Shown: one piece after another, positions 3,234 through 26,089 of the stretch
Layout of the letters: every line of letters begins with the position of its first letter
Position numbering within the stretch: position 1 is the stretch's first letter
Source of the DNA: Patescibacteria group bacterium
GTDB lineage: Bacteria > Patescibacteriota > Microgenomatia > Daviesbacterales > UBA10151
Direction of reading: 5' to 3'
DNA: 64,000 nt
Assembly (NCBI GenBank): GCA_023379125.1
Contig: JAMCSY010000004.1
Span: 58,479-122,478 of the forward strand
The notes under the pieces: model-generated
Told to the model about the DNA's origin: nothing
What the model saw: only the letters and a program-made list of their open reading frames with translations
The model's database searches: none
Translations under genes and position numbers: made by a program

Positions 3234-3250
3234 TGAAAACTTTTTGATAG

Positions 3251-9495: not shown

Positions 9496-9576
9496 CTGAA
9501 TATGAGTATAACAAAGTGAACAGATTTTAGATTCAACAAGACTAGAGTAGTTTAGCCTTATTTGATAGAAAACAGC

Positions 9577-9933
9577 TTACCTCCTAATACAAACAAGCAT
9601 AGCCCTACCACCACTACTAACAGTCTCTTGCCAGATATCTGTTAAACCTGCACTTGTTCCACAATAGTAGCCAGTATCATTATAGTTCCAGCGAACAGAA
9701 CCTACCTGCTTAGTCAAGTCTGTAGCACGACAGGTATAAATATCTATCCCAGCTGGAGTAGTGACTTCTTGGGAAATAGTTGTAGCTATCGGGTTACCGC
9801 TAGCACCTAACATTCCACACTCCACACCACGGGTAACCATTGCCCCATCAGCTGAAGTAGGAGCTGCTGTTGCTAAAAAGAGAGCTGGAGCAAGTACTAG
9901 CCCTAATAATTTTTCTTTTGGCACTTCAATCAC
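9577..9933 (-). CDS. Small secreted Cys-containing protein, hypothetical
   Basis: 118 aa with a signal-peptide-like N-terminus and six Cys. Confidence 0.4.
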   Translation of the reverse strand: MIEVPKEKLLGLVLAPALFLATAAPTSADGAMVTRGVECGMLGASGNPIATTISQEVTTPAGIDIYTCRATDLTKQVGSVRWNYNDTGYYCGTSAGLTDIWQETVSSGGRAMLVCIRR

Positions 9934-9976
9934 CTCCTTTATTTACTAAGCATATTAAACAGGATCATTTTTATAC

Positions 9977-11164
9977 TTAGCCTACCCAATACCAATTTAT
10001 AAAAAATATAGATGTCAGAAAAATACCTATAAGAAAGATTCCCGCTAAAATCAAATATGGACCTTTTTTTAATAAATTAGCCAAGTAAATATAGAGGGGA
10101 AACGAAACAGTTTGTAATCGACTAAAGGACATGTTATTAACCAGTAATGGAGTAACAAAAATAGCTAAGCTAATCCACCAAAGAGAACTTGGTAAAAAGT
10201 TCTTACTCTTTATCAATAATATAGTCACCACAATCATCATCAAGCTGTCAATTTGAGAAGCATGAAAACTATGGAAAGGTAGCGATGGAAAAAGAGCGAG
10301 TTTTAATAAATTGTCAAGCAAGGGAATTGGGCTTAACATACTATTTAGCCAAATATGTCTGACAGTTAAAAAATAAAAAGGATTTTGTGTTTTGATAAAA
10401 CAAAAAATCAGCCAAAGCACGAGTGGTAATATCACAATTCCACATAGTAACAAGCCAGAGAAAAACTTTAGTTTATTAGCACGCAGTCTTTGGAAAAGTA
10501 CCACCAAATACCAGATATTGAGTAGCCAGCCGTTACCTTTGGTTATATTCATAAAAGCCAAGAGTGTTGCTGATATTAATAATTTTTGTTTAATCATGAA
10601 ATAGCCAAACCAAATTAAAGTTAATAGTTGCAAATTTTCTACATAATAACTTCTAAAAAAAATAGATAAGGGAAACACAAAAAGTAAGAAAACTGTTTTT
10701 AAGGCTAGGCTTGGAGAAAAGAGTTTACCAACAACCCAGTATAAGCTAATAAAGTTTATAACTATTAGTAAATTAGTAGTTATGAAAGCAGCAGTCTCAA
10801 TATTTGGAAAAAATAAATTAGCCAACCTAAGAAGTAGTGGCCATAATGGAAAGAATCCATAGCTCATTCCTCCCATCACATTGGGATCTTGATAATTCTG
10901 CAGAGTCGGATTCTGTGGGTAACCATCAACAGCTATTTTTAAGTACCATTGTGCATCCCAAACAGCCAAACTATTAATCAAATCAAAACCCTCTGATTTT
11001 ATTCTGTTATCTTGGATGTAGTGCTGAGAGTTATACCGGTAATTAAATAAATTAATTGGTAACCATTTGTGACTGACAAGAATAAATGAATAAAGCAGTA
11101 GATTCAGGATAATAAAAATTACTAGCGCCAGAATAAACTTATAGTCAATGCTAGTACTTCCCAA
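9977..11164 (-). CDS. Polytopic membrane protein, possibly a GT-C-fold glycosyltransferase
   Basis: 395 aa with ten or more hydrophobic helices and the aromatic-rich loops typical of lipid-linked sugar transferases; no firm motif. Confidence 0.4.
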   Translation of the reverse strand: MGSTSIDYKFILALVIFIILNLLLYSFILVSHKWLPINLFNYRYNSQHYIQDNRIKSEGFDLINSLAVWDAQWYLKIAVDGYPQNPTLQNYQDPNVMGGMSYGFFPLWPLLLRLANLFFPNIETAAFITTNLLIVINFISLYWVVGKLFSPSLALKTVFLLFVFPLSIFFRSYYVENLQLLTLIWFGYFMIKQKLLISATLLAFMNITKGNGWLLNIWYLVVLFQRLRANKLKFFSGLLLCGIVILPLVLWLIFCFIKTQNPFYFLTVRHIWLNSMLSPIPLLDNLLKLALFPSLPFHSFHASQIDSLMMIVVTILLIKSKNFLPSSLWWISLAIFVTPLLVNNMSFSRLQTVSFPLYIYLANLLKKGPYLILAGIFLIGIFLTSIFFINWYWVG

Positions 11165-11352
11165 AAAAAGTATGCCAGGTTGTTTAGTGTGTTTTGGTAT
11201 CGATTTCAGACTAGTCCTTTCTTTGTAAGATTAGTTTAAAAAAACAAGTGATGCAATGGCTACAAGTCATACAGTACGTCTTGCTTGTTGACAATCAGTT
11301 AGACCCTTTCTACTATTGACTAAGAATCCCATTTTGAGATTTAGGTTGGTTA

Positions 11353-13164
11353 ATGATAAATAATCTTCTTAATAAGGTTTTACTGCAACCCTCCCCTCTT
11401 CCAATTCGAAGTTATGGATCAATTGAAGTGATTGGTGATCAGCTTCACATTCATCACACTAACAGAGGCAAAGTTAAATCTTACACCATTAATTTAGATG
11501 GCAAAGATATCGAAGATAAGATTAAAAATGAGATCGCTAAAATCTCTACTCAAAATCACAAATTGGTTGCAGTATCTTTCCACGAGCATGAATTGCATAA
11601 AAAAGTAGCTTCTAAACTCTGGGTTGAGGAAGATATTGTGTCTTTTCTCATTAATGACAAATCCCACCATAGCACCACTACATTAGAAAGAGATCTAAAA
11701 TATATCGCTACTAGTTTTGATAAAGATAACGTGGCCCAAATTAGAATCAGTCCGGAAAACGAAGTAGAGATAACTGACTTAGTCTCTTTGGCTGATTACC
11801 AAAAAATTACCAGCAGAGCTGAGTATTCAAAATTATTATCCCTGGCTAAAAGTTTTTATCATCGCCGTTTAATTTATATTAATGCAACACCTCAAGGCGG
11901 TGGAGTAGCTTTAATGCGTCATGCTTTAATTAGACTTTTTAGATTACTTGGAGTGGATGCTCATTGGTTTGTTCTCAAGCCTAATGCTGCAGTATTTAAT
12001 GTGACCAAGAGAAAATTTCATAACATTCTACAAGGAGTGGCTGCTGCGGATTTGGTCTTAAATGATCAAGATAAGCACTTATATAACCAGTGGATTAAAG
12101 AAAATGCTTTAATTTTTCAAGCAGAATTTAAAAAAGCTGATGTGGTGGTAATTGACGATCCGCAGCCTGCGGGACTAATTCCCTATATCAAGGAAGCAAA
12201 CCCTCAAGCCAAAATAATTTATCGCTCGCATATTCAAATTGAAACTAAACTAGTTGACCAAGCAAATAGTCCTCAAGCTAAAACTTGGCAATTTATTTGG
12301 GAAAATGCCCATTTAGCAGATATTTTTGTTAGCCATCCAGTACCTGATTTTGTCCCAAAAGATGTGCCTTCTCAAAAAGTTGTTTATATGCCTGCTACCA
12401 CTGATCCCTTAGATGGTCTGAACAAACCACTCACCGATCATCAGATTACTTACTATCTCCAGCTTTTTAACAAACTTTTAAAAGAAGAAAGTCAAACACC
12501 ACTGAATCCCAAAAAAGATTATTTGATTCAAATTGCTCGTTTTGATCCATCTAAAGGGATCCCAGATTTATTGGAAAGCTATTTATTACTTACACAGAGA
12601 TTAGCAAAAGGGCACATCGAGAGACCACAACTGGTAATTACTGGCAATGGTTCAGTTGACGATCCAGACCGCGCTCCTGTTTTCGAGCAAACTCTGGCAA
12701 TTATTAATAGCCCCAAATATAAACATCTCAAAAACGACATTAAAGTAGTCAGGCTTCCACATATTGACCAGCTGCTCAACACCTTATTGAGAAAAAGTAA
12801 AATTGCCCTACAACTTTCTATTAAAGAAGGATTTGAAATAAAGATTACTGAAGCGCTCATGAAGAGCAAACCAGTGATTGCTTATCGCAGCGGGGGGATG
12901 CCCCTGCAGGTTGAAAATAAAGTAACAGGTTTTCTGGCTCAACCTGGTAATACTAAACAAGTGAGTGATTATCTTTTTGATCTGCTAACCAACACCAGTC
13001 TTTATCAACATATGAGCTGGGCTGCCGAGAATTATTATGACCACTCATTGCTAACTATTCCGAATGCTATTCGTTGGCTAGAATTAAGCCTGCAACTATT
13101 GGGGAAAAATCTTAAAGACCTTGATACATCCAAGAGGTTAGATTCCCCTGTGCAATCCATTTAA
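11353..13164 (+). CDS. GT4-family glycosyltransferase, TreT-like (trehalose-synthase-like), with an N-terminal extension
   Basis: NATPQGGGVALM glycine loop plus the C-terminal Glycos_transf_1 signature (FDPSKGIPDLL ... EGFEIKITEALMKSKPVIA). Confidence 0.55.
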   Translation: MINNLLNKVLLQPSPLPIRSYGSIEVIGDQLHIHHTNRGKVKSYTINLDGKDIEDKIKNEIAKISTQNHKLVAVSFHEHELHKKVASKLWVEEDIVSFLINDKSHHSTTTLERDLKYIATSFDKDNVAQIRISPENEVEITDLVSLADYQKITSRAEYSKLLSLAKSFYHRRLIYINATPQGGGVALMRHALIRLFRLLGVDAHWFVLKPNAAVFNVTKRKFHNILQGVAAADLVLNDQDKHLYNQWIKENALIFQAEFKKADVVVIDDPQPAGLIPYIKEANPQAKIIYRSHIQIETKLVDQANSPQAKTWQFIWENAHLADIFVSHPVPDFVPKDVPSQKVVYMPATTDPLDGLNKPLTDHQITYYLQLFNKLLKEESQTPLNPKKDYLIQIARFDPSKGIPDLLESYLLLTQRLAKGHIERPQLVITGNGSVDDPDRAPVFEQTLAIINSPKYKHLKNDIKVVRLPHIDQLLNTLLRKSKIALQLSIKEGFEIKITEALMKSKPVIAYRSGGMPLQVENKVTGFLAQPGNTKQVSDYLFDLLTNTSLYQHMSWAAENYYDHSLLTIPNAIRWLELSLQLLGKNLKDLDTSKRLDSPVQSI

Positions 13165-13504
13165 TTGCTTTTTCTACCTCAAATTTACACAAACCCTCAT
13201 CATAACTACAAGTTGTCTGAGCAGCTAAAGTTTCATCCAAAATAGTCAAAGTCGGTAGAGCACGCGGATTGGCTATTTGACCTAAGGCCCAAATAGCGTT
13301 ATTTCTTTCGCGGAAAGTGTTTTGTTCCGAAGAGACTAAACTCAACAACGCTTCAACACAGTCTCCGGGGTATAAACTTTTTGCCCGTTGGCAACTAGAC
13401 TCAACTTGACGATGGATTGTATAAAGACCCAAACCAAGAAAAAGCACTGACAGAAGTAAGACTGAGGTGGATAAAACCAACACCAACTTCCTAGTGATGG
13501 CCAT
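13112..13504 (-). CDS. HEAT-repeat (PBS-lyase-like) protein with an N-terminal TM helix
   Basis: NNAIWALGQIANPRALPTL HEAT-like repeat; hydrophobic N-terminus. Confidence 0.45.
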   Translation of the reverse strand: MAITRKLVLVLSTSVLLLSVLFLGLGLYTIHRQVESSCQRAKSLYPGDCVEALLSLVSSEQNTFRERNNAIWALGQIANPRALPTLTILDETLAAQTTCSYDEGLCKFEVEKAIKWIAQGNLTSWMYQGL

Positions 13505-13528
13505 CTTTAATAAATTATAGCATGCAGT

Positions 13529-13957
13529 TTAGGAATTTTTAATCTGTTTTGCCCAAGTAGCCACTTTTTCTAACTCCCCTTCTCTAAGAGGGCCTTCTTT
13601 ACCCTCAACAACAAAACCAATGGGTTTGACTACTGCTTTACCACCAAGACTGACTAATTTTTCTTCAATCTTATCAGCTGCACTACCAGCAAAAAAGATT
13701 TTTACTCTAGTATCAAATGCCGCTATTTTAATATTTTGCAAGCAGTTAGACTGCCAAGAATCTAGTAGTTCAGACATTGGTTCAGCTGGACGCCAACCAT
13801 GGATGGGACAGCCTACTACTAATACCCCTATTCCCTTTAGAAAATCTGGTTCAAAATCTGCTACTTCAACAGCTTGACCCTTAAGTACTTGAGCAATTTT
13901 CTCTGCCACTTTTTGAGTGTTGCCAAACAAAGAGTTATAGATAACCAGCGTTTTCAT
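13529..13957 (-). CDS. Flavodoxin-like protein
   Basis: MKTLVIYNSLFGNTQKVAE matches the flavodoxin FMN-binding N-terminal signature. Confidence 0.65.
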   Translation of the reverse strand: MKTLVIYNSLFGNTQKVAEKIAQVLKGQAVEVADFEPDFLKGIGVLVVGCPIHGWRPAEPMSELLDSWQSNCLQNIKIAAFDTRVKIFFAGSAADKIEEKLVSLGGKAVVKPIGFVVEGKEGPLREGELEKVATWAKQIKNS

Positions 13958-14004
13958 GGTGGTATTGTACCTTTGCTATCTAAAAAAGGCAAAAATGAAC
14001 CCCT

Positions 14005-14083
14005 CCCCACTGCAAGCAGTGGGGTATCCCGCAAGCGGGACAAGTTCTTCTGTGAACCATTCATTCTCGAATCAAGATTCGAG
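14005..14083 (-). other. Three consecutive CUUG-tetraloop hairpins in the intergenic 3'UTR/5'UTR; structured RNA or compound terminator
   Basis: On the minus strand: ctcgaat-CUUG-attcgag, tcccg-CUUG-cggga, ccccactg-CUUG-cagtgggg, followed by the U-rich ttcatttttgcctttttt. Confidence 0.45.
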
Positions 14084-14093
14084 GTATTCTGGT

Positions 14094-14360
14094 TCAAGAA
14101 TAAGTCTTTTTACCCTTGGAGACTTGTTTGGCTACCCAAGCAATAATATAAATCCCCACATAAAGGTCTAAGAAACCATAGACAAAGCCAATCAGACTAC
14201 CCCACAAAGAGATATTAAAGCCAGGATAAATACTCACCCAAATATCCAAGAAGGCCCGACCATAGCCGGTATAGGCACATGCCAAGGTGGTTAAGAACAT
14301 TATTGCTCCCCAGATAAGTCCTCCAGTAAGCGCCCACCTATGTAATCTTTTATTCATCAC
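14094..14360 (-). CDS. Small membrane protein
   Basis: 88 aa with two or three TM helices. Confidence 0.4.
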   Translation of the reverse strand: MMNKRLHRWALTGGLIWGAIMFLTTLACAYTGYGRAFLDIWVSIYPGFNISLWGSLIGFVYGFLDLYVGIYIIAWVAKQVSKGKKTYS

Positions 14361-14550
14361 TCCTCACCCCCCTCTTTTTTAAGCATACACTCAGCCAAAA
14401 AGATGATGCAAATTAAAAAAGGTAATTTTTAATCTTTTTCTTAGCGCACCCACCACATCCCATTACTTAATCGGTTCTGTCTTAGTTAAGTTAATAAACA
14501 ATCCTCAAGTTAGTGAGGATGTTAAGGTCATAATAGAATCAAGAAGTAGC

Positions 14551-14868
14551 TCAGATCGAGGATAAACCGGAAAAAAGCAGAGTTAGTGCCAGGATTGTTA
14601 CTCCAGCAAAAATTACCACTGTTTTTAAGAACAAATCCACTGCTTCTTTTTTCTTTCCCTCTATAAACAACATACCTGGTTGGTATAAAAATAGATAACC
14701 CATCACCGCTGCTGATAAAGTAAACAGGGAAACCACAGCAATCGGGGCGAGGATGGAATGGTCGGGTCCAGCTGATCGTCCACCCCAGGTCATTACTGAA
14801 GCAATTATCACAATGTATAAAGTGGCAGCAAAGGCATTAATTAAGGGATTTTTTGTCATCTGATACAT
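14551..14868 (-). CDS. Small membrane protein
   Basis: 105 aa with three TM helices. Confidence 0.4.
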   Translation of the reverse strand: MYQMTKNPLINAFAATLYIVIIASVMTWGGRSAGPDHSILAPIAVVSLFTLSAAVMGYLFLYQPGMLFIEGKKKEAVDLFLKTVVIFAGVTILALTLLFSGLSSI

Positions 14869-14933
14869 ATTATACCTTATTTATCAAATGAAGTATCAGC
14901 TTTGGCTGAAAAGGTACTATGACCACAATATTT

Positions 14934-15311
14934 TTAGATTTTATAGGTACTTTTACCCCAACTTACAAGCAGGGGCAGTAAAAAAACTAAAATATAATAT
15001 ACATAAACATCCAATTTATAGTATCCATCCGCTGGTTTGAGGAATTGTACTAAAAAGAGATAGTCAAACAAAATTGCGATTAAAACCCAGATCAAGCTTA
15101 TTTTGCAGAAATAGGAGAATGCCTCACTTTTAATCTGCCTGAGCAAAACCCACAAGGTCACAGCAGTACCAATGGGTAAAATGATCCACCCAATCAAAAC
15201 ATTTGGCATCAACATAAACAAAATACTACCCAAAATGATTGCGCTGCTACCTGAATAAGGCACCCATTCACCAAAATATTTTTCCATTACACAGTCATGG
15301 TACTCTTTCAA
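14934..15311 (-). CDS. Small membrane protein
   Basis: 125 aa with four TM helices. Confidence 0.4.
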   Translation of the reverse strand: MKEYHDCVMEKYFGEWVPYSGSSAIILGSILFMLMPNVLIGWIILPIGTAVTLWVLLRQIKSEAFSYFCKISLIWVLIAILFDYLFLVQFLKPADGYYKLDVYVYYILVFLLPLLVSWGKSTYKI

Positions 15312-15445
15312 ATAATCTTCATCAAACCTTCCCAGTATAAATCAACTGTGTCTTGGCTGGAGCAAAAGCGACTCTTTCGAGTGAGCACGCTTAGTACTAA
15401 TTATCAGCACAAAAGAGATAAAGATTCTTATTGCCTAGCCTTTTA

Positions 15446-15474
15446 TTGACAAGAATATCGAGCATGGCTATACT
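15446..15474 (+). promoter_or_regulatory. Sigma-70-type promoter
   Basis: TTGACA, a 17-bp spacer, then TATACT, about 30 bp upstream of the 15506 ORF. Confidence 0.5.
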
Positions 15475-15505
15475 CCACTTATCTTAATTATTGAATTAAC
15501 TAAGG

Positions 15506-16360
15506 ATGGAAACTTTTACCACAACTCCCGAAGAAGCTACAGAAATTCGTGACATTTCGCAAGGAAGCATAGAGATTGCTGTAGATCAAGTATCCAAATC
15601 AGCCAACAAAAGATTCACCGAGGGTGCAACCAAAACTCTTTTTAGAGTAAATAGGCAGCAAGCAATCGCCTTAGCTTTGGTATCAGGCCTATCTTATCCA
15701 ATCGGTAGAACAGAATTAGCAAAAGTGGCTGGCCAGGCCTATGATTTATATGCTGCCATACCAGCAGGTGCTTACTATCTGGAAGAGGGGAAGTTCCCCT
15801 CCTTAGATCCTCAAGAAATTAAGTCTAGACACCAGCACGGCTACAATGACTGTTTTTTTGTAGCCCAGAAATATTATGATGGTGTGGTAATCAGCAACTT
15901 CCCACGCGGATCAATGATCAGCACCGTTGATAGGTCAGTCCAAATTTCCTGGGATCTTTTAAAACAAGGATGGGGTCCATGGGGGAGTAGTTTTACCACC
16001 TTCTACTCTGAAGCAAAGGTTGTTGCCAAGAAGCCATTAGAAGAATATCTGAAAGAGGGGTTTAAAATTTTTGCCGGAAAAAGGTTCTGTGCCACTTTAT
16101 CCCGCTATCAGATGTGGCAACTGGGCGGTTATCCACTAAGTGGTTTAAGAAAGTTAACCACAGCAGAAGATTTCATAGGCTATACTGAAAGGTTTTTAGG
16201 AAGATCTGAGGTTTTATTACCACCTATTGAGGAAGTGTACTCTTTAGGAATCCATAAAGCAGAGCAGATGACACTGGAAGAAATTTTAGCAGAAGTATCT
16301 AGGAGGGTTGCGGCCAATCAGATATCTACAAAAAGATTACTTGCTTCAGGAACCTACTAA
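15506..16360 (+). CDS. Hypothetical protein
   Basis: 284-aa ORF with its own promoter; no recognisable domain. Confidence 0.5.
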   Translation: METFTTTPEEATEIRDISQGSIEIAVDQVSKSANKRFTEGATKTLFRVNRQQAIALALVSGLSYPIGRTELAKVAGQAYDLYAAIPAGAYYLEEGKFPSLDPQEIKSRHQHGYNDCFFVAQKYYDGVVISNFPRGSMISTVDRSVQISWDLLKQGWGPWGSSFTTFYSEAKVVAKKPLEEYLKEGFKIFAGKRFCATLSRYQMWQLGGYPLSGLRKLTTAEDFIGYTERFLGRSEVLLPPIEEVYSLGIHKAEQMTLEEILAEVSRRVAANQISTKRLLASGTY

Positions 16361-16484
16361 CTTAATTAGATTCTCTCATCTTCTTATCCCTTGACAGTGT
16401 ATGTTCCAAATTACTGATTCCTGTTTATTGTGCATGACTTTATTATAGTTTGCTTTTGACACTAATAGGAGTAGGATCGATTTT

Positions 16485-16778
16485 TTATCTTTTTGAAGAG
16501 GTAACTTTACCAAAAATAAATACTATCAAACTTAGAAGAAAGCATATCGCAACAGTAAACAAAATAAAATTCACTGCATAATCAAGCAATTGACGGCCTA
16601 ATGTTCTTGAGCCAATAACGGTGATATCCCGAGGCACGAAGTTAAAGGCATAAAGTTCCAATAAAATGGCCGCTACGACAGAAATTATTAATTTTAACCT
16701 AAGACTCAGCATATTTAAGGATAGCACAGTAGCCTTAGTCTTTGCTATCAAAAATAGAAGAAAGAGCGTACATCGCAA
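16485..16778 (-). CDS. Small membrane protein
   Basis: 97 aa with three TM helices. Confidence 0.35.
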   Translation of the reverse strand: MRCTLFLLFLIAKTKATVLSLNMLSLRLKLIISVVAAILLELYAFNFVPRDITVIGSRTLGRQLLDYAVNFILFTVAICFLLSLIVFIFGKVTSSKR

Positions 16779-16950
16779 TATAGTCTAAGCGTATCACATA
16801 GATTTTAATCTAGTGATTAGATTTTTCAGCTAAAATATATGCTCCACCTAATTGACAGACTTAGAAAATATTTTTCCATTACAAATTATGATAATCTAAA
16901 TCAGTATCGCAGAAGGTTTCTCTTTCTGTGGTAAATTTTAAAATGGAAAT

Positions 16951-17139
16951 ATGTTAAAGATTATCCGGATTATCTTAACTGTTATTTTGCTACTTCCCAC
17001 TATTTTTTTCCTTATTTTTATGCTTGGAGAAGTTTTTAGTGGAGACTGGAGTGGATTTTCTCATTTAATCCAAGCAGCACCTTTTATTGTGCTTATTTAC
17101 CTGATCTGGAAATTCCCTATTCTCAAGAAGAAACATTAG
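16951..17139 (+). CDS. Small membrane protein
   Basis: 62 aa with two TM helices. Confidence 0.3.
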   Translation: MLKIIRIILTVILLLPTIFFLIFMLGEVFSGDWSGFSHLIQAAPFIVLIYLIWKFPILKKKH

Positions 17140-17182
17140 CCAGTTACCACTTTCACCAAAATTATGGGAGGTTGAAAATTGC
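17138..17182. repeat. 45-bp direct repeat copy 1; encodes only the last 14 codons of a paralog of the 18822 gene
   Basis: accactttcaccaaaattatgggaggttgaaaattg is shared with 18822-18867. On the minus strand it reads stop-KSNFQPPIILVKVVTG-stop. Confidence 0.6.
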
Positions 17183-17222
17183 TTTTTTAAGAATCTGCAG
17201 AAAATTTCGAGGCGGTATTTAA

Positions 17223-18122
17223 TTATTTAATTGCGCTAACAATTCGTTTTATCCAGTCCAAGCCGTTTTGATATGGTGTAATAGAACTACTCACTTGATA
17301 ACCTGTAACTTTTTCTACAAATCTAACTCTTTCCTTAAGGATATCCTGTAAATCATTTTCAGAGTTAAGATATGTCAAATGGTCATTAATATTAAAATTG
17401 GGGACCAAATTACTCAGCGAGCCTACTAAAGCACCATCTGTGGTTATCAAAGGTAAACAAAGATTCTGGTTCAGAGTTCTCGCTACAACATCAACCTGAG
17501 GATGGTAAATCATCTCCCCATTTTGTCCTACTTTTCCCTTGACTAGCCAATTTCCTGTGTATCCAAAAAATGGGTACCATTCTCCTTGATTTTTACCACT
17601 CGTACCGTTTTTAGACTTATAAAAAGGTAGGTGAATATTGCCAACCCTAGCGAGCACAAAGAGACGATGGTGCATACCATAAAATAATTGAGCACCCGAT
17701 GTTTCCAATAAGACAGTAGCTAAGGCATCTTTATTTATATAAATTGCCTGATATTCAGAACCTCTGCTTGTTTGACAGCGTACAACCACTTCTCCACTTC
17801 CGATTTTTGCTGGCTGTGTATCAGCTGGAAGAGATACTGAGCCCAACTCATGTCTGAGCTTTAAGCCAGAAAACTCTTTATCCAACTCCTCATATCTTGA
17901 GGTAGACGTAATATAGAATTTTCTGCCTTTTCCATCCTGTACAATTGCTTGAACAGGTGTGGTATGACCACCTTCGGAAAATCTAATGGAACTTCCGATT
18001 TTAATAGGATCAACCAATTTACCAGCAACCACTTTCCCCTCGGGAATACCAGATGATAGTCCGTTAGCAATTGATCTTTTCACAAAAACCTTTATCTCTC
18101 CGCTTTCAATGCAACTGGACAT
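17223..18122 (-). CDS. Hypothetical protein
   Basis: 299-aa ORF; no recognisable domain. Confidence 0.5.
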   Translation of the reverse strand: MSSCIESGEIKVFVKRSIANGLSSGIPEGKVVAGKLVDPIKIGSSIRFSEGGHTTPVQAIVQDGKGRKFYITSTSRYEELDKEFSGLKLRHELGSVSLPADTQPAKIGSGEVVVRCQTSRGSEYQAIYINKDALATVLLETSGAQLFYGMHHRLFVLARVGNIHLPFYKSKNGTSGKNQGEWYPFFGYTGNWLVKGKVGQNGEMIYHPQVDVVARTLNQNLCLPLITTDGALVGSLSNLVPNFNINDHLTYLNSENDLQDILKERVRFVEKVTGYQVSSSITPYQNGLDWIKRIVSAIK

Positions 18123-18309
18123 AGACGCATTATAATAATTCTGAGCTTAAATATCAAACTATAGGACTTATCTCCAGCAAACCTTAACTTATCGAACCTA
18201 GATTTAAGTCATCAAGATTCCGTCGCTGAATTAAGGTAAAGGTGGTTAGAGAGAAGGCAGCTAAAATTCTATTCCGCCCTGTAATAATGTTTATGAAACC
18301 TCTTTGTGT

Positions 18310-18744
18310 TTACAATACTTTGGTTTGCCAACGATAATAATAGGAAGTTTTCTCGTAGCCTAATCGAGCGTAGTAATCTTGTAACTCTTCATTATTTTGA
18401 TCTACTAAAATATGTACCTCGTTATGACCTCGATCTTTTAATCTCCTCTCTGCTTCCTGGAGTAGTTTAGGACCAATACCCTGTTTTCGTTCTCGTTCTA
18501 TTACCGCTAAACGGAAAATCATAGACATTCTTCCATCCTCAACAATCATAACCGTACCCACAACTTGATTAGATTTCACTGCTACCATAATTGATTCAGG
18601 GTCTCTATGGATTTTAGCCACAAACTTATCTTCTGTATCGAAAGGTTCATAAAACATGTCTGCCTCGTCATAAATACTTCTAACCTGAGGGTAGTCTTCT
18701 AGCAGATAATTGCGTACTCTGACTTCAGCTTCTTGGTCCGTCAT
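18310..18744 (-). CDS. GNAT-family N-acetyltransferase
   Basis: Acetyl-CoA-binding motif RLAVIERERKQGIGPKLL. Confidence 0.8.
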   Translation of the reverse strand: MTDQEAEVRVRNYLLEDYPQVRSIYDEADMFYEPFDTEDKFVAKIHRDPESIMVAVKSNQVVGTVMIVEDGRMSMIFRLAVIERERKQGIGPKLLQEAERRLKDRGHNEVHILVDQNNEELQDYYARLGYEKTSYYYRWQTKVL

Positions 18745-18821
18745 AAAATGTATTATAATCCAAAGATGGCGAATTTTTGACGTTTTTCCTTTCAGTTTTT
18801 ATTAAAATAACAAAACTGAAA

Positions 18822-19232
18822 TTAGCCAACGACCACTTTCACCAAAATTATGGGAGGTTGAAAATTGTGCAAAGCATCTAAAAGTTGGTGAATTGGCTCT
18901 AACTGCTGATTACTGTCCCATTCACGACTTGTCATAAAATCACCATAAACCTCAACTTTGTGTGCCAGCGGAGCAGTCTGTGGTAATGCCTTTGGCCTAG
19001 TACGTGTTCGCCATTTAAACTCATTATCAAGATCATGGATGATGTTTTTATCAATTAGCTCATCTGCCCGATCAAGTACAGTTTTTTCAAACGAACGTCT
19101 TTGCTCCCCAATGACTGGGACTCTCCAAAAAAATCTCAGTAGCACATCATCCAGACTACCCTCAATAGACCATTCTATGGTAAATGGATGGCGTTTAGGT
19201 TGTGTGAGTTGAGGATCTAATTCTGTAGACAC
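18822..19232 (-). CDS. Hypothetical protein; its 3' end lies in 45-bp repeat copy 2
   Basis: 136-aa ORF ending ...NFQPPIILVKVVVG. Confidence 0.45.
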   Translation of the reverse strand: MSTELDPQLTQPKRHPFTIEWSIEGSLDDVLLRFFWRVPVIGEQRRSFEKTVLDRADELIDKNIIHDLDNEFKWRTRTRPKALPQTAPLAHKVEVYGDFMTSREWDSNQQLEPIHQLLDALHNFQPPIILVKVVVG

Positions 19233-19357
19233 AGTAGGGCTAAATATAGCACCACTATAAGATTATTTCAATTTGAACACTGGATTTTTAGACCTGGCTA
19301 TAATTATCAAACTAACTTTTACCCCATCGTAATATTGACATTGAGAATAGCTGACAT

Positions 19358-19525
19358 ATGATAAAAGTAATGGTCAGAGGTAACTTTATTGGCGCCGCAA
19401 TTGTGGCCATAATATATACAATTTATATTTTAATGAGGCCTCTACCCACCAGAGCGGAAACCATTATTGCCTTGATTGTCCTGAATGCTTTAACCATTGT
19501 GCTAATATCTTTTGCTTTCAAGTAA
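19358..19525 (+). CDS. Possible small membrane protein (55 aa), absent from the ORF track
   Basis: ATG at 19358; two hydrophobic helices (MIKVMVRGNFIGAAIVAIIYTIYILMRP...IVLISFAFK). Confidence 0.25.
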   Translation: MIKVMVRGNFIGAAIVAIIYTIYILMRPLPTRAETIIALIVLNALTIVLISFAFK

Positions 19526-19578
19526 GCCTCGGTAAGTTGCCAGTTTGCAATTTTTCTTTTAGTCAAATCTGTTTGTGC

Positions 19579-19896
19579 TTAATTACTGCCAGAGTTTTTT
19601 TGGCGTTTACTGAGCACATATTGTACTGAGGGACTGATTGGCTTATCTGTCCGGTGAATACAACCAATCCAGCAACAAGGTCTGCGCATGCCTTCTTTGA
19701 GCTCCGCAATAACCCTTTTGACATGCTCATCTCTGGTTTTTTGCTGTTGAACGGAGATTGTCCAGCAAATCCATTCATTGCGCGCAAGCGGGGTCAAGCT
19801 TTCCCAAATTGCTAATGCTTTTGCATCAGCAACCAAAGCTTTGCTTAAATCCTCTGGAATTTCATGCACTACTCCCCCTGAAACACTTTTAGTCAT
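19579..19896 (-). CDS. YdeI/OmdA-like (bacteriocin-protection) domain protein
   Basis: DLSKALVADAKALAIWESLTPLARNEWICWTISVQQQKTRDEHVKRV resembles PF13376. Confidence 0.5.
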   Translation of the reverse strand: MTKSVSGGVVHEIPEDLSKALVADAKALAIWESLTPLARNEWICWTISVQQQKTRDEHVKRVIAELKEGMRRPCCWIGCIHRTDKPISPSVQYVLSKRQKNSGSN

Positions 19897-19980
19897 GGAG
19901 ATATTTTACCACTGTCCTAACTCTCAGCACAGAATACAAAAATCTGAAGCTAAATTAGCTTAACTCCTTAAATAGGTTAG

Positions 19981-20304
19981 TCATTCAATTTTTCTCTTTT
20001 CATTGTCTAGTTTAATTGCCATTGCCAGTACCAAAAGTGCATTCCTCACTCTTGGACTATTTCCACCACCAAAGCTAGAACGAAATCTTAATAAATCTCC
20101 GGGCATTTCAGTAATAGTATTGACCCAAACATCACCTGCTACAGAATCAATCAGGACACTGAGCTGACCCACAGAAGATCCATCATGATCATCATGCAAA
20201 CGCGAATAAGTAGTATCAGTTTCTAATTCTTGAGGCCAAAATGGAGTTTCCAAAATTCTGTGGATGGCCTGAATCATTTCCTCTCTATCTAGCTCCCTGG
20301 ACAT
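19981..20304 (-). CDS. Hypothetical protein
   Basis: 107-aa ORF. Confidence 0.4.
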   Translation of the reverse strand: MSRELDREEMIQAIHRILETPFWPQELETDTTYSRLHDDHDGSSVGQLSVLIDSVAGDVWVNTITEMPGDLLRFRSSFGGGNSPRVRNALLVLAMAIKLDNEKRKIE

Positions 20305-20341
20305 AGCGCAATTCTATCATAACCGAACAGGCAGGAAGAGT

Positions 20342-20785
20342 TTATTTGTGTGAATTAACAGCTTTCCAGGTTCTAAAATCAATTCCAGGATGCTGTTCGG
20401 CTGTTTCTTGCCACTGCCTCCACTCTACTTGGGTAGCTGTTACTACTGCATTTAGTCTTGTTCCTAACACTGTAGATTCTCCATAAAATCCACCTTCCCC
20501 CCTCCAACCTCCTGTTCTGCCTGGGGTAAAGGGAACTGAATATTCATTGTCAAATAGATTAAAACATTTAATCTCTAATACTTCACCTTGCTCATCAAAC
20601 TCTACTCGTAAAGCAACCTCACCATTAAAGACAGTACCGTCATACTGCTCTCTTAATAATTGGGGAGTAATACTTAAATCTTTAGGGATTGGGTCATATA
20701 ATCGAGGTCTCGAGGGAATCTGCTCCCCATTAGGTCTTTCTGCTGACATAAAGGTAATTTTAGCAGACTTGAAGTTAAAAAACAA
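20342..20785 (-). CDS. Hypothetical protein
   Basis: 147-aa ORF. Confidence 0.45.
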   Translation of the reverse strand: MFFNFKSAKITFMSAERPNGEQIPSRPRLYDPIPKDLSITPQLLREQYDGTVFNGEVALRVEFDEQGEVLEIKCFNLFDNEYSVPFTPGRTGGWRGEGGFYGESTVLGTRLNAVVTATQVEWRQWQETAEQHPGIDFRTWKAVNSHK

Positions 20786-20976
20786 ACTATAAGCCTTAGC
20801 TCGAAGATTGTAACGTTAATATAACCAGTCAATTTTTGCGCATATTCAAAGTTTTCGAAGATTTTAGGTTTAGTAGTCAACTACGAGGAGAAATGGAAAA
20901 AGTACGGCCAACAATAGTTATCGCACACCGAAAAGTGTCTTTACTCATTGCACCGCTTTAAGTAGTATTAAATAGG

Positions 20977-21636
20977 ATGATAAAAAGCAGCGATAAACAA
21001 ATTTCAATTGCGGGATTTTTAGGAGTATTCATTTTTATAATCTCAATATTTGTTGCGACAAAATACTCCCACTCATTTCAAAACTGGTATACCACAAATG
21101 AATTTTTTGATTGGCACAATATGGCGATCAGCCACATTGGGGTAAGCAATCTTGCTATTCCTTTTACGATAATCGTCTGCCTTGTTAGCTTGCTGATAAT
21201 CTATTTCATAACTGGTGTCAAAAAACATTATAAAAACAAAGGATTGTTAAAACATGGAACATCTTGGATCATTACTGGATTTATTGCCTTAATGTTAGCT
21301 TTTATATTCCTGCTATATAAGCCAAATTCCACCATGTCAATTGCGATTCATTTCTTGTTTGCAATAGTTTACTTTACTAGTATTCCAGTCGGAATAGTAA
21401 TGATAGGGATCCATTTTGTTAAAAAAAGGCAAGCATATCTTGGATATTCCTCTTTGATATTGGGGATTTTGGCATTTATATTTGGCCCAATAATTTGTAT
21501 GGGCTCAAGCATTTTGTTCGGAGATAAAGGTGTGGCAATACCAGAATTTATACAGATTGTTTGTGAGGATCTTTGGATAACGCTTCTTGGAATTGATATT
21601 CTTAAAAACAAGAAAGTGCCTCTAGAAATCTCATAA
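20977..21636 (+). CDS. Integral membrane protein
   Basis: 219 aa with six TM helices. Confidence 0.45.
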   Translation: MIKSSDKQISIAGFLGVFIFIISIFVATKYSHSFQNWYTTNEFFDWHNMAISHIGVSNLAIPFTIIVCLVSLLIIYFITGVKKHYKNKGLLKHGTSWIITGFIALMLAFIFLLYKPNSTMSIAIHFLFAIVYFTSIPVGIVMIGIHFVKKRQAYLGYSSLILGILAFIFGPIICMGSSILFGDKGVAIPEFIQIVCEDLWITLLGIDILKNKKVPLEIS

Positions 21637-21874
21637 ACATCAGTTCAAGTAAAGCAACAAATCCCAACCCAAATGCAGGTTATATTAAGTATTTAATAGG
21701 TTTACAATTCAAGTCTAATTTATCTTTGCTCCGCGAGTCTAGAATTAGTATAAGCGATAAAGTTATTGATGCTCTAGAGAACTTAAAGTATATTGGAGAA
21801 TTAAGACAGAGGTGGCTGGAAATTAAAAGATTGCAAAGCGTAAGTTCTTTAACAATTTAGTTTTTACCAAGCCA

Positions 21875-22102
21875 CTATCTGTTGAGTTTATTTAATCCAG
21901 CATAATATCCTGCAAAAAAGAGAAGAATACCCATCAGTACAAGTGGCAGAACAATAAAAAGTGGTCTAACTTGCGGGGTTGCTGCAAGGGGCGCAGTAGA
22001 AGCTGCTGAAACAGAAGCGAGAACAGTTAGAATAATTGATTTGCGCTTATTATCCATACAGTTATTTTTATCTGTTTTTCTAATTATAGAACTTCTTTGC
22101 AA
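21875..22102 (-). CDS. Small membrane protein
   Basis: 75 aa with two TM helices. Confidence 0.3.
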   Translation of the reverse strand: MQRSSIIRKTDKNNCMDNKRKSIILTVLASVSAASTAPLAATPQVRPLFIVLPLVLMGILLFFAGYYAGLNKLNR

Positions 22103-22143
22103 GAAGCGAAAGTTGTAATAAAAGGAGTTAATGGGGTATTAGA

Positions 22144-22515
22144 CTATTTAAAATTTTTCCAAACTGGCTTTATTGCTAAATATAAAATTCCAAACATAAT
22201 AACGTTTACCAATAGAACCATTGACATACTTATAATTATTTGGCTTATATTGGATACAATGTAAAATTCATTAATTCCCGTTATGAGAAAAATTACAATT
22301 GCTGAGGATAGTAAGAATGGAACTCCTCTCTTTCTCCATCTAAGTAGCTGGACTACCGCAAATATTTGCAAAAAGCCAGCAGCAATCCCAATAAGACTAA
22401 TGTAGTTTTTAGTAAGACGTATCATAGGAAGATATGTGAGAGAATCGACCGTAAGTGCGACAGATAATAGAAGCATTACGATGAGCCATATTGTTAGAAA
22501 TTTTGGTCTTTTCAT
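22144..22515 (-). CDS. Small membrane protein
   Basis: 123 aa with four TM helices. Confidence 0.4.
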   Translation of the reverse strand: MKRPKFLTIWLIVMLLLSVALTVDSLTYLPMIRLTKNYISLIGIAAGFLQIFAVVQLLRWRKRGVPFLLSSAIVIFLITGINEFYIVSNISQIIISMSMVLLVNVIMFGILYLAIKPVWKNFK

Positions 22516-22516
22516 T

Positions 22517-22960
22517 TTATTTTTCTACAATTTCCCTCACAATTTTACCAATAAGCTCAAACGGAAATGGTTTGTCTAGTGGGAAATGAAAAGATGCCCT
22601 GGTAACTTGGTAGTCTTTTAACAGTTCCAATGATTTTCCTGCACGAGTTGGGGGTAAGTAAACGGCAATATAATTTTTAGATAAGCCAAAGTATATTAAT
22701 CGACTTTTAAAACCAGAACCGCCATATTCATAAAATGGCATACCATAGCTAATTTTTTCATGGGCTTTTGGCGCTGCTTTTATTATTTCTTGGCGAAGTT
22801 TAGTTAATGTTGCTTGAATTTCCTTAGGCGCCTGGGTAATATAAGAATCCACATCTTTTGGTATTTGCTTATTTTTCATTATAGTAAAAGTATAACAAAA
22901 AGTTATAATAAACTGCTGGAAGGGTGTCTGAAATAGCCTAATTATAATGCTCCACCTCAT
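22517..22960 (-). CDS. DUF1801/YdhG-like protein
   Basis: VDSYITQAPKEIQATLTKLRQEIIKAAPKAHEKISYGMPFYEYGG matches the YdhG-like family. Confidence 0.55.
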   Translation of the reverse strand: MRWSIIIRLFQTPFQQFIITFCYTFTIMKNKQIPKDVDSYITQAPKEIQATLTKLRQEIIKAAPKAHEKISYGMPFYEYGGSGFKSRLIYFGLSKNYIAVYLPPTRAGKSLELLKDYQVTRASFHFPLDKPFPFELIGKIVREIVEK

Positions 22961-22983: not shown

Positions 22984-23730
22984 TCACTGCTTAATAAAAT
23001 TATTACTTTTTCCCAAGTTACACTCTTCGCATAGTGTTTGTAAATTCTCTATTGTGCTTTTACCTCCTTTTGAAAAAGGAATCATATGGTCAATGTGAAG
23101 TTTGGTACCTATATCTGTAGCTGGGCTTTTTCCACAAAATACACATCTAAATTGATCTCGCGACAACACTTTTAATCTTAGACTTAAAGATATTGTTCTT
23201 GAATCAGAGGAGCTCCGTACGTATTCTCTTTCCATACCCCCAACCTGTTTAACTTCTTTAGTAAGTTCACTTTTATTATTGTCATCTGAAACAGTTACGT
23301 TCCCTGATTTTGATTCGATAAATTTGAGACAAGCATTTTGCCAACTACCGAAATGTCGAGGATAAGTATCGTAGCTTATTTTATAATCACTCCCAAGCCA
23401 CTCATCTTTAGATGGTTGATGACCGATTTTTATCCATATGCGTTCCATCTCGCCGAAAAGTTCTTTATCTGAATAGCTAGTTCTTCTCGACGTAAGTTTA
23501 AAATCTATTCCTTTACTATGTAAATGTTTCACTAGGAAATTCATGGCATTTTGCCAAGAGCCAAATTCTCGATAAACGGTATAACTACTAATAGACGCTA
23601 CCTTATCAAAGTCGTCTTGCCTGAAGTCGGTATAATTATTATTCCTTGCAACAGTTTCGAGTTCGGAAATAATACGATCCCTTTTTATTTTGCTTCCCTG
23701 ATATTTCCTTAATTCAAATTTGAAACTCAT
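22984..23730 (-). CDS. HNH endonuclease with two N-terminal homing-endonuclease-associated repeats
   Basis: C-terminal CVFCGK...HIDHMIPFSKGG...NLQTLCEECN HNH motif; a duplicated ...FGSWQNA... repeat in the N-terminal half. Confidence 0.7.
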   Translation of the reverse strand: MSFKFELRKYQGSKIKRDRIISELETVARNNNYTDFRQDDFDKVASISSYTVYREFGSWQNAMNFLVKHLHSKGIDFKLTSRRTSYSDKELFGEMERIWIKIGHQPSKDEWLGSDYKISYDTYPRHFGSWQNACLKFIESKSGNVTVSDDNNKSELTKEVKQVGGMEREYVRSSSDSRTISLSLRLKVLSRDQFRCVFCGKSPATDIGTKLHIDHMIPFSKGGKSTIENLQTLCEECNLGKSNNFIKQ

Positions 23731-23747
23731 AATAAAATTATTCGATT

Positions 23748-24638
23748 TTAATAGTTTTGAGGCGACTCTACGTAACCATCAAAAATAGCGGCCTCGATCT
23801 CATGCTTCTTTGGGTTATCGTCATCGAACGCATCCTCAACCATCTTTAGATCTAATAACGATTCGTCTTTAACTTTTTCAAAAGCTCCGGCGCTTAAAAA
23901 ATTACCATAAAAGTTTCTCTGGGGATTTACTACATTTTGTTCAAGTTGAATATCGAAATTATTCTTTAAATATTCCGTGATTTTGATATACACTGCTTCC
24001 GCTAGGCCATTATAAAGCTGTTGATTCTGAATATTACCGTGAATTAGTTTATGGCGTAAGCCAGTGCCATAGAGATAGAGTTTATCGTATAGCTCATTGC
24101 CTAAAATTGCTTTTAAAGCATTTTGATCTGTTCTCACTCTACCGTTTGCTCTAATCTCTCCTGCAAATCCTTCAGCAGCTCCAAGAAGCATCGTTAATCG
24201 AGTGATCGCCGTCATAGAATTTGCAGCTTCCATAATATAAAAGAGACCGTTTTTGTTAGGAATAGATTGAAATTTGGGCAACTGTTCGATCTCTTGTGTG
24301 TCAAAATGAAGCCCTGTGTGGCTAACTCCCTTGACGTAGTATATATAAATAATATTTTCAGGATTATGAGTTTTTTTAAATATGAAATAACTATTTGCAG
24401 CTAAACGGAACGCGCATTGAGATACCACTGAAAACTTTTCTACCTCAGGAATTAGCTCTGTAATAAACTTATACCTTGCTTCACCGGCATTATTGGCGCT
24501 TATGATTTTCGACGCAACCCACGCATCACAATTCCACCATTCGTTAGTGTAGGAACTGAAGTTATATCCTCCTGAGTTAAATCCCTGAATAAGTTCGGCT
24601 ACAGTTGCAATTTTATAGCTGATAAGATAATCGTTCAT
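23748..24638 (-). CDS. Hypothetical protein, middle gene of a four-gene operon
   Basis: 296 aa; start/stop overlap with the upstream gene (ATGA at 24638). Confidence 0.5.
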   Translation of the reverse strand: MNDYLISYKIATVAELIQGFNSGGYNFSSYTNEWWNCDAWVASKIISANNAGEARYKFITELIPEVEKFSVVSQCAFRLAANSYFIFKKTHNPENIIYIYYVKGVSHTGLHFDTQEIEQLPKFQSIPNKNGLFYIMEAANSMTAITRLTMLLGAAEGFAGEIRANGRVRTDQNALKAILGNELYDKLYLYGTGLRHKLIHGNIQNQQLYNGLAEAVYIKITEYLKNNFDIQLEQNVVNPQRNFYGNFLSAGAFEKVKDESLLDLKMVEDAFDDDNPKKHEIEAAIFDGYVESPQNY

Positions 24639-26089
24639 TATTTTTGTTTTCGATACAACTCTTCGTTTACAATTACTCCGTCATCTGTTTTTTGAATGTA
24701 CGGTTCGTGATGAGAGTCAGGGACGAAACCAAATCCTGAAGCATAAATGTCTTGGATAATAGATCCAGCAATCTTTTCTGATTTAATTAAATCCTCGGTA
24801 TCATAAGGTCCAAACTGCCAATTATCCTTTTTCTGAGTACCGACATTTGAACGAATAAAATTATTTACGGTCAATACAAGCGAGTATTTGCCTCCATTTT
24901 TCGTTATAAATCCAATTTCCACATCATAAGATAATCGTTCTTTATCAATGATCCCAGCATTAATTAATGCCTTGATAAATAAAAAGAAACTATTCACATA
25001 TTCAACAAAAGCAAAGGCGTTTAATAATTTTTTACCCTCATTCTTCTCGTCGTCTTGAAGACCCCAATCAAGAAACTCTTGTATATTAGCTCCTGCAGCA
25101 ACAATCCCATTTTTCGTAACTTTAAGTATCTTCCTATTACCGTTCATAACCTCCCAACTGTTTCCCTCGGGTTGAGGATATTCACTGTAGGCAACACTTA
25201 AATCCCAACCCATATTCCTTAATATGGGCGGATTCTTCATATGGTGATATATCGATCCATCTGACTTATCCCAGAAGTTATTGAGAGTTACCCCTCTTGT
25301 GGGAGTAGCAACCATATAAAAGACATCTGCCTCGGCATCAAGTTTATTGATAAATTCCTCGACTATTCTTTTTTTTTGTTCTACGTCTGGAGGTTGAATC
25401 GCGGATTTAGTCTGAGATTCCTCTATCCGATCCGCTATTGCAGATAGTCGACTTATTTGATTTTCAACACTTACGTTAGTCATGGAACCCGATAAAACAC
25501 CGGCCACATATTCTTGAAACTTGTGGGCGTCGACTAGTTGAATGTTTTTTGCGCCATCTCGAGTATATATTCCATAAACCTGCCCTTTAAGTACAATCTC
25601 TTCTTTTGGATTCCATTGGTCTTGAGGAATGATGAAGGGGTATAAGCCCATATCTTTGGCGTTGGGTATCTTAATCCACAACACTTCTTTATCTTTACTC
25701 ACAAACCCCGATGCAATCTTTTCTCTGGGAAAACGAGGTACTAAACCATCAGACAGTATATCCAGCCACCGTTCAATATCTAAAGCTTTTGCTTCTATTC
25801 CACAAACAGATTTTACATACTCAACCTGTCTGCCTTTAACGGTATCGGGAACCAAACCAATTAGCAAATATCCACCCCCGCTATTGGAGATTGAGGAAAT
25901 ATCCTTTAATAGCTCTGTTCTGGATTTATATTTAGCCCAGTCTTTTCCTGATTTTTCTTCTTCGAAGTAGGGTTTTTCTCGAAACTCGAAATAAGAAGTT
26001 TCTAACGCACCAATAAAAAGGCTCGGGTCATTATTCTTAATTATTTCCTCTATCTCTTGGATAGATAGAAGCTTCGTTGTAACTTCCAT
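24638..26089 (-). CDS. Protein with an N-terminal AlbA_2/Schlafen-like (divergent-AAA) DNA-binding domain and no P-loop
   Basis: The N-terminal ~100 aa (IQEIEEII...ELLKDISSISNSGGGYLLIGLVPDT) match the PF04326 pattern; there is no Walker A anywhere in the 483 aa. Confidence 0.5.
   Translation of the reverse strand: MEVTTKLLSIQEIEEIIKNNDPSLFIGALETSYFEFREKPYFEEEKSGKDWAKYKSRTELLKDISSISNSGGGYLLIGLVPDTVKGRQVEYVKSVCGIEAKALDIERWLDILSDGLVPRFPREKIASGFVSKDKEVLWIKIPNAKDMGLYPFIIPQDQWNPKEEIVLKGQVYGIYTRDGAKNIQLVDAHKFQEYVAGVLSGSMTNVSVENQISRLSAIADRIEESQTKSAIQPPDVEQKKRIVEEFINKLDAEADVFYMVATPTRGVTLNNFWDKSDGSIYHHMKNPPILRNMGWDLSVAYSEYPQPEGNSWEVMNGNRKILKVTKNGIVAAGANIQEFLDWGLQDDEKNEGKKLLNAFAFVEYVNSFFLFIKALINAGIIDKERLSYDVEIGFITKNGGKYSLVLTVNNFIRSNVGTQKKDNWQFGPYDTEDLIKSEKIAGSIIQDIYASGFGFVPDSHHEPYIQKTDDGVIVNEELYRKQK

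Follow-up and report, generated by a model that had tools for sequence, protein, structure and literature searches.

A duplicated gene tail encloses two genes near OmdA in a Patescibacteria genome and may mark a past recombination

The 64,000-nucleotide (nt) stretch that we analyzed from the metagenome-derived genome of an uncultured member of the Patescibacteria group (CPR) (assembly GCA_023379125.1, contig JAMCSY010000004.1, positions 58,479 to 122,478; hereafter "the window") contains a direct repeat whose two copies coincide with the end of a protein-coding gene. One copy is the functional 3' end of a gene for a 136-amino-acid (aa) protein, and the other is an orphan tail of 14 codons. Between the two lie a gene for a GNAT N-acetyltransferase and a gene for a 299-aa protein. 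We regard the repeat as a recombination scar in a variable locus and not as an active element, a reading in which our confidence is about evenly balanced.

The repeat is 47 nt long, at 17135-17181 (copy 1) and 18821-18867 (copy 2), both read on the minus strand, with 44 of 47 positions identical and 1686 nt from start to start. An earlier note on this DNA, made from the letters alone, had described a 45-bp direct repeat with its first copy at 17138-17182. The repeat is real, but its length and the position of its first copy had to be corrected, and the string quoted in the note, which is present in both copies, covers the exact 36-nt core alone (accactttcaccaaaattatgggaggttgaaaattg, at 17146-17181 and 18832-18867). 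This core matches the 64-kb window twice when up to three mismatches are allowed, against no match in 100 dinucleotide-preserving shuffles. Exact direct repeats of at least 19 nt are rare in the window, with four in all, two of which are tRNA arms. Copy 2 translates as ...LHNFQPPIILVKVVVG followed by a stop; it spans the final 14 codons, with the stop, of the 136-aa open reading frame (ORF; 18822-19232, minus strand) and makes up the functional end of that gene (NFQPPIILVKVVVG and stop). Copy 1 reads ...DS-stop-KSNFQPPIILVKVVTG-stop, i.e., an orphan tail of 14 codons (NFQPPIILVKVVTG, with its TAA at 17136-17138) that has an in-frame stop three codons upstream (...DS-stop-KS). Translation thus agrees with what the note had said of both copies, and the two ORFs that it placed between them are there (299-aa gene at 17223-18122 and GNAT gene at 18310-18744, both on the minus strand). 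The orphan tail is non-functional, and the 136-aa gene was left intact. When the 136-aa protein was searched against the window with tblastn, the orphan was matched at 17180-17139 by residues 123-136 alone, and no pseudogene remnant adjoins it.

The limits of the homology are informative. On the outer side it stops one base past the stop codon, and beyond this point the flanks are unrelated (a 62-aa ORF next to copy 1, a hairpin and the GNAT gene next to copy 2). The other limit lies 14 codons before the stop, at CAATTTT. A repeat that ends one base past a stop codon suggests that homology between gene copies, and not a blind staggered cut, set its limit. The three mismatches are consecutive, GTT at 17143-17145 in copy 1 and ACG at 18829-18831 in copy 2; by our own arithmetic, the probability that three positions drawn at random from 47 are adjacent is 45/16215 (about 0.003). 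They turn the VVG at the end of the 136-aa gene into VTG, giving the orphan the ending ...VVTG before its stop. Because consecutive differences produce an ending that also belongs to a member of the family (P0024, ...VKIVTG), the orphan seems to be the tail of a genuine allele. The orphan also converges on the 62-aa ORF, a hydrophobic ORF called as a gene in the NCBI record (16951-17139, plus strand), whose TAG stop (17137-17139) shares two bases with the TAA of the orphan. Such a compact overlap of stops is typical of an original gene end.

The family to which the 136-aa protein belongs is very small and of unknown function. The protein has no match in Pfam, NCBIfam, PHROGs, or PADLOC, and its AlphaFold2 model is too poor for use (mean predicted local distance difference test score, pLDDT, 51.6). 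A word-indexed search returned one relative only (P0002, 66% identity), 1.84 billion cluster representatives scanned in full with HMMER yielded three clusters of the family, and a protein-guided search of metagenome contigs returned no relatives. In total, the two big protein libraries yielded four relatives besides the protein of the window, and every one has a genomic context of its own. Conservation is highest in the C-terminal strand, and the motif [ND]F[QHE]PPxxxVK[VI] ends all five sequences. The 90%-identity cluster of the window protein (P0001) has a single member, and a full-length allele ending in VTG is not on record. At the DNA level, the two copies in the window are identical over 36 nt, whereas the tails of three relatives (L001, L093, and L094) differ from them at many synonymous sites, so the two copies have a recent common origin.

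These features lead us to the following scenario. The 3' end of the 136-aa gene would once have existed in two versions with different contexts, one followed by the convergent 62-aa ORF and the other by the hairpin, the GNAT gene, and the 299-aa gene. Closely related cells would most likely have carried them as alleles, although they might also have been paralogues. With the homologous tail as its anchor, a recombination could then have joined the GNAT-299 segment to the end of the 136-aa gene, either by a Campbell-type single crossover of a circularized fragment, or by homology-facilitated illegitimate recombination of linear DNA taken up by the cell, whose far end would have been joined 14 codons before the stop. 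Either route would strand the original last 14 codons beside the 62-aa ORF. We favor recombination anchored in the gene tail because the repeat is bounded by the stop codon and because the orphan ends in a natural variant and overlaps compactly with the 62-aa ORF, together with three observations detailed below: mobility genes, inverted repeats, and att-like folds are lacking, the composition of the segment is host-like, and the repeats of this locus and of its neighbor are unequal in length.

The neighboring repeat is an exact one of 19 nt (AAAATATTTTTCCATTACA), at 15273-15291 and 16865-16883. Its functional copy (15273-15291, minus strand) is the start region of a gene for a 117-aa membrane protein (15287-14934, minus strand, in the NCBI record). 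Its orphan copy (16865-16883, minus strand) has a 4-nt leader before an ATG and 4 more codons (MEKYF) and is the start of an ORF of 17 codons. The pair flanks a segment of 1592 bp with a 284-aa ORF (15506-16360, plus strand). In 200 order-2 Markov shuffles, an exact repeat of at least 19 nt arose in 4, and in none were the copies spaced by 2 kb or less. The 62-aa ORF therefore stands between two orphans, a gene head and a gene tail; beyond each of them lies a segment of about 1.6 to 1.7 kb, and then an intact gene. The two repeats differ in sequence and in length, and such unequal lengths (19 and 47 nt) fit homology-guided events rather than an enzymatic duplication of fixed length. Campbell-type and homology-facilitated illegitimate recombination insert a segment and duplicate the short homologous anchor, with the homology setting the length of the repeat. 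The locus would resemble the products of such events in that repeat length varies from one event to the other and the insert is host-like. Nineteen nucleotides are below the usual minimum for efficient RecA-dependent recombination.

The repeat could also have arisen by a blind duplication at the time of insertion, either when a staggered break of 47 bp was filled in or when template switching copied the last 47 nt again after an ectopic segment, followed later by a multi-base mutation. Thirty-six identical bases fit two copies of a single template, three adjacent differences could be a single mutational event, and repeats of variable length (19 and 47 nt) are seen in template switching. But this would make it a coincidence that the repeat ends within one base of a stop codon, and the VTG variant is a natural ending of the family. 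Furthermore, to our knowledge, 47 bp far exceeds the target-site duplications of known transposases. We thus consider a blind duplication decidedly unlikely. The earlier note had proposed that a cassette inserted into the 3' end of the 136-aa gene with duplication, or that paralogues recombined. The anatomy does fit an insertion or a recombination, and a recombination between two versions of the gene tail fits it better than a blind target-site duplication, while the idea of a travelling cassette found no support.

Does the segment have any means of moving by itself? Between the copies (17182-18820) there is no recombinase, no transposase, and no terminal inverted repeat, and neither the GNAT nor the 299-aa protein matches a recombinase family in Pfam, NCBIfam, or PHROGs. 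Neither copy of the repeat, on either strand, folds better than shuffled controls (z scores of -0.0 to +0.9), and we rejected an attC-like or RNA structure in the repeat on these grounds. Compared with host windows of equal size, the segment ranks at the 21st percentile in its tetranucleotide distance from the host, and its G+C content is unremarkable. As a positive control, 91% of the windows of a 20.4-kb island located elsewhere in the stretch were above the 95th percentile of the host. Because its tetranucleotide signature is host-like, unlike that of the island, the composition of the segment points to a native origin or to an origin in a close relative. A self-mobile cassette is not supported, given the lack of recombinase, inverted repeats, and attC fold, the host-like composition, the fact that the genes are not paired in any other locus recovered, the position of the 299-aa gene right after OmdA in a syntenic relative, and the failure to find an empty site. 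An integron gene cassette was rejected because there is no attC fold and no integron integrase in the annotated neighborhood. A transposon or insertion sequence was likewise discarded, with no transposase, no inverted repeats at the ends of the segment, and duplications that differ in length (47 and 19 nt) and greatly exceed the usual size.

A more elaborate alternative is a site-specific integrative cassette lacking its own integrase, akin to a cis-mobilizable element (CIME) or to a satellite of the tycheposon type, in which the 47-mer would be an attachment site mimicking the gene end and the unit of 1.69 kb would be moved by a recombinase whose gene lies elsewhere. Integrase-mediated insertion has as its hallmark flanking direct repeats of about 40 nt into which the target gene extends with its 3' end (10.1101/2020.12.28.424599), and elements that keep attL and attR but have lost the genes for integration and transfer exist as CIMEs (PMC5704250). 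The locus resembles the attL/attR of elements that integrate at gene 3' ends, such as prophages, integrative and conjugative elements (ICEs), integrative and mobilizable elements (IMEs), and tycheposons: these have repeats of about 40 to 50 nt, one completing the gene and the other orphan, with the cargo in between. Here too, the repeat (47 nt) has one copy at a gene end and an orphan one, and the inner copy restores the gene. The neighboring segment likewise has repeats at gene ends, and the window encodes a 289-aa tyrosine recombinase (1635-2504) as well as two large serine recombinases in the 20-kb island.

The unit itself contains no integrase, intact or decayed, and none lies next to it; its target would be a protein-coding gene of rare occurrence instead of a tRNA gene. 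The composition of the unit is host-like; a distinct composition is usual for recent arrivals, although it is not obligatory. We found neither a polymorphism between occupied and empty sites, the two assemblies being identical here, nor a second, independent occurrence of the unit. The two genes are never together in the other loci recovered, and a relative shows synteny for one of them. When the tail was back-translated into a degenerate pattern (AAYTTYCANCCNCCNATHATHYTNGTNAARGT), this had no match in species-representative genomes (596 Gb, source genome not included), in the JGI metagenomes, or in IMG/VR, and the plasmid collection gave no match. The lineage is very thinly sampled, so that the absence of other occurrences is weak evidence. 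Moreover, the 19-nt repeat of the neighboring segment covers a gene head and differs from the 47-nt one, so one site-specific system cannot explain both. As regards CIMEs, the repeats are present and mobility genes absent, but there are no decayed ICE or IME genes that would show such a descent and no functional element accreted next to the unit at the same site, and the 299-aa gene of the cargo is syntenic in a relative and so probably native. Nothing links the tyrosine or serine recombinases of the window to the repeat site as cognate integrases. An integrative cassette of this kind is therefore unlikely in our view.

Comparison with other genomes shows how variable the locus is. In the window, the order is OmdA, a convergent 55-aa ORF, the 136-aa gene, the GNAT gene, the 299-aa gene, the orphan tail, and the 62-aa ORF. 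In one related locus (L001), OmdA is followed after 11 nt by a 137-aa gene whose product is 66% identical to the 136-aa protein, and then by a convergent PIN toxin module. A homologue of a 105-aa gene that lies downstream of OmdA in the window lies upstream of it in L001. Another relative (L003) is syntenic with the window (DnaG-RpoD-...-OmdA), with an OmdA about 70% identical. There, a homologue of the 299-aa protein (65% identity) is encoded 94 nt after OmdA, and this place holds neither the 136-aa gene nor the GNAT gene. The window and L003 have in common an exact 15-mer (TAAGTCCTATAGTTT) and the promoter layout upstream of the 299-aa gene, so this gene and its predicted promoter are an orthologous unit near OmdA in two lineages. 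Other homologues of the 299-aa protein (36 to 44% identity) are in unrelated neighborhoods without GNAT. The three clusters of the 136-aa family found with HMMER are beside RsmH, beside ribosomal protein S9, and on a contig of 1.3 kb, and none of these contexts includes the 62-aa ORF, the GNAT gene, or the 299-aa gene. Judging from these gene orders, the stretch downstream of OmdA is variable among relatives.

The same comparisons give some room to a history of duplication and loss. Two copies of the 136-aa gene could have existed, either after a tandem duplication of a GNAT-299-136 unit or as old paralogues homogenized by gene conversion, and the downstream copy would have lost its first 122 codons in one clean deletion. 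This would turn an ancestral order OmdA-299-136 into 136-GNAT-299. The adjacency of OmdA and the 299-aa gene in L003, with the shared promoter motif, suggests that the 299-aa gene is native, and L001 has the 137-aa gene next to OmdA. The permuted position of the 105-aa homologue between L001 and the window is typical of duplication and loss, the orphan tail is in a native-looking convergent overlap with the 62-aa ORF, and the composition of the segment is host-like. The locus is thus like the products of tandem duplication with random loss in having an orphan fragment, a permuted gene order, and variable synteny among relatives. It is unlike them in that the clean fragment of 14 codons is the only duplicated material detectable. 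Nothing else of a second copy is left, and there is no decayed similarity beside the fragment, which still allows for a single clean deletion. The 41 nt downstream of the 299-aa gene are unlike the region upstream of the present 136-aa gene. At least one duplication and two deletions would be needed, against one event for an insertion, and a similar history would have to be repeated for the neighboring 19-nt repeat. We consider duplication followed by loss somewhat unlikely.

Several points weigh against a scar left by tail-anchored recombination. The empty site, i.e., the 136-aa gene facing the 62-aa ORF, which the earlier note had proposed to look for in relatives, was not found in any locus recovered: the contexts of the 136-aa family are mutually unrelated, and the 80 further OmdA loci that we searched for it, in a gene widespread across phyla, include no homologue of the 136-aa gene. 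The putative donor arrangement, with the 136-aa gene followed by the GNAT and 299-aa genes, was not found in other genomes either. Since OmdA and the 299-aa gene are neighbors in L003, the 299-aa gene could be the ancestral one at this place and the 136-aa gene the one that moved. The 36 identical bases and the three mismatches could result from one multi-base mutation after a simple duplication. Finally, the copy number of the repeat is that of the 64-kb window. Since neither the donor arrangement nor the empty site was found, we infer, rather than observe, that the event was an insertion and not a loss, and that it took the route of recombination.

The arrangement itself seems reliable. All three proteins (136-aa, GNAT, and 299-aa) recur with 100% identity in another metagenome-assembled genome (MAG) of the Patescibacteria group (GCA_023485375.1), whose contig JAMCZV010000038.1 matches positions 8822-22956 of the window at 99.99% with an identical arrangement. 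The two assemblies are identical at the repeat locus though they differ by the 20-kb island. The k=31 unitigs of Logan break inside the 36-mer, as expected of a true repeat: one of them (L096) ends at 17175, and another (L092) corresponds exactly to 17152-18861, i.e., to the segment with 30 nt of the repeat at each end. Hence, the k=31 graph is a loop and cannot by itself separate an integrated segment from a circle of 1686 bp. This raises the possibility of an assembly artifact, whereby the GNAT-299 unit would be a separate small circle, or come from another strain, and would have been threaded into the contig through the 36-mer; the chromosome would then carry the 136-aa gene with a VTG tail facing the 62-aa ORF. 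Yet both full assemblies put the segment in the chromosome, with the same integrated order at 100% identity, and the bases that flank the core (GTT and ACG) tell the two paths apart. Any read of at least 100 nt, or an assembly k-mer of at least 55, should also span a repeat of 36 nt. An artifact is, in our opinion, most improbable.

Of the two enclosed genes, the first encodes the GNAT protein. This protein (144 aa; 18310-18744, minus strand) matches Pfam Acetyltransf_1 (E=1.5e-16) and scores under every NCBIfam equivalog cut-off. Its nearest homologues are at most 53% identical and are encoded on tiny contigs without either partner gene. The 299-aa protein (17223-18122, minus strand), of unknown function, has no Pfam match, and its family has the core VGNIHLPFY...GEWYPFFG. 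The earlier note had asked whether the GNAT and 299-aa genes travel together, and they are adjacent in no other recovered locus of either gene. Our search for the function of the enclosed genes returned PHROG 32390 (E=4e-24), which is a profile of 1957 positions whose function is unknown, as well as a structural protein of 979 aa from Cellulophaga phage phi4:1 (E=7.5e-12 with Foldseek) and four IMG/VR contigs. A toxin-antitoxin pair of the TacT/AtaT type was rejected, there being no small antitoxin of the ribbon-helix-helix (RHH) or DUF1778 type and the upstream gene encoding the 136-aa protein, which lacks a Pfam match. A role in defense is unsupported, with no evidence from PADLOC or Pfam.

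The predicted signals around these genes suggest that the GNAT gene and the 299-aa gene each have their own promoter. For the 299-aa gene, a predicted promoter (18129-18170, minus strand) has TTGATA and TATAAT boxes separated by 17 nt (18157-18129) and matches 11 of the 12 consensus positions. It overlaps at its -35 region with the motif TAAGTCCTATAGTTT (18156-18170, minus strand), which is identical in L003 (at about 9947-9961) and could be an operator or a promoter element. A variant of the motif with 13 of 15 positions occurs at 20784-20798 (minus strand), at the start of a 147-aa ORF; a match with two mismatches is within chance expectation. An AT-rich hairpin (TTTCAGTTTT / AAAACTGAAA; 18790-18821, minus strand) comes directly after the 136-aa gene and its stop codon, where the putatively inserted segment has its inner edge. 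The 136-nt stretch that contains it folds with a z score of -1.7, and the hairpin looks like a terminator. On the other side of the 136-aa gene, the hydrophobic 55-aa ORF beside OmdA (19358-19525, plus strand) is 71 to 75% identical to ORFs adjacent to OmdA in two distant MAGs (L014 and L077), and for this reason it is a real, conserved small membrane protein linked to OmdA.

Elsewhere in the window, the segment of 20.4 kb (22957-43386) is absent from the sister contig JAMCZV010000038.1, which is 99.8 to 99.99% identical, and abuts the 3' end of tRNA-Asn(gtt) (43389-43461, minus strand), with a short ATGCTCC repeat at the junction. It encodes two large serine recombinases (28460-30289 and 42094-43401), a type I restriction-modification system (HsdR at 36309-39011, HsdM at 34895-36325, and HsdS at 33571-34926), an HNH endonuclease (22984-23730), and a Schlafen/AlbA_2 protein (24638-26089). 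The segment stands out clearly as atypical in its tetranucleotides, and it looks like a polymorphic integrative island in this Patescibacteria genome. The 289-aa tyrosine recombinase (1635-2504), which has Phage_integrase and SAM_1 domains, is encoded near tRNA-Ile(tat) (3250-3322, minus strand). The T-arm region of this tRNA gene has a partial second copy 74 nt away (an exact 25-mer at 3186 and 3260), an att-like partial duplication, and an 800-aa HerA/TrwB-like ATPase is encoded at 3642-6044. Another partial-tRNA repeat, exact over 18 nt (ATCCCTCCCTCTCCGCAG; 48152-48169 and 48279-48296, the second copy 127 nt downstream), covers the 3' end of tRNA-Ser(gga) (48080-48167).

One could imagine that the two segments of about 1.6 to 1.7 kb, both without integrase and both enclosed by a repeat of a protein-gene end (the 47-nt tail of the 136-aa gene or the 19-nt head of the 117-aa gene), are products of a still-active and undescribed process by which ultra-small Patescibacteria genomes capture small circular or vesicle-borne cassettes at gene ends, relying either on short homology or on a recombinase provided in trans. 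We consider this very unlikely. Duplicated gene ends around inserted DNA are a well-known type of scar, and the locus adds one more case, from a lineage that is poorly sampled. It shows no sign of activity and reveals no new mechanism or element. The dynamics of Patescibacteria genomes are poorly known because close relatives are unsequenced. If our reading is correct, the repeat would be a small, datable footprint of a change of gene order in such a genome, and the stretch downstream of OmdA would be a variable place at which the shuffling of small genes sets relatives apart.

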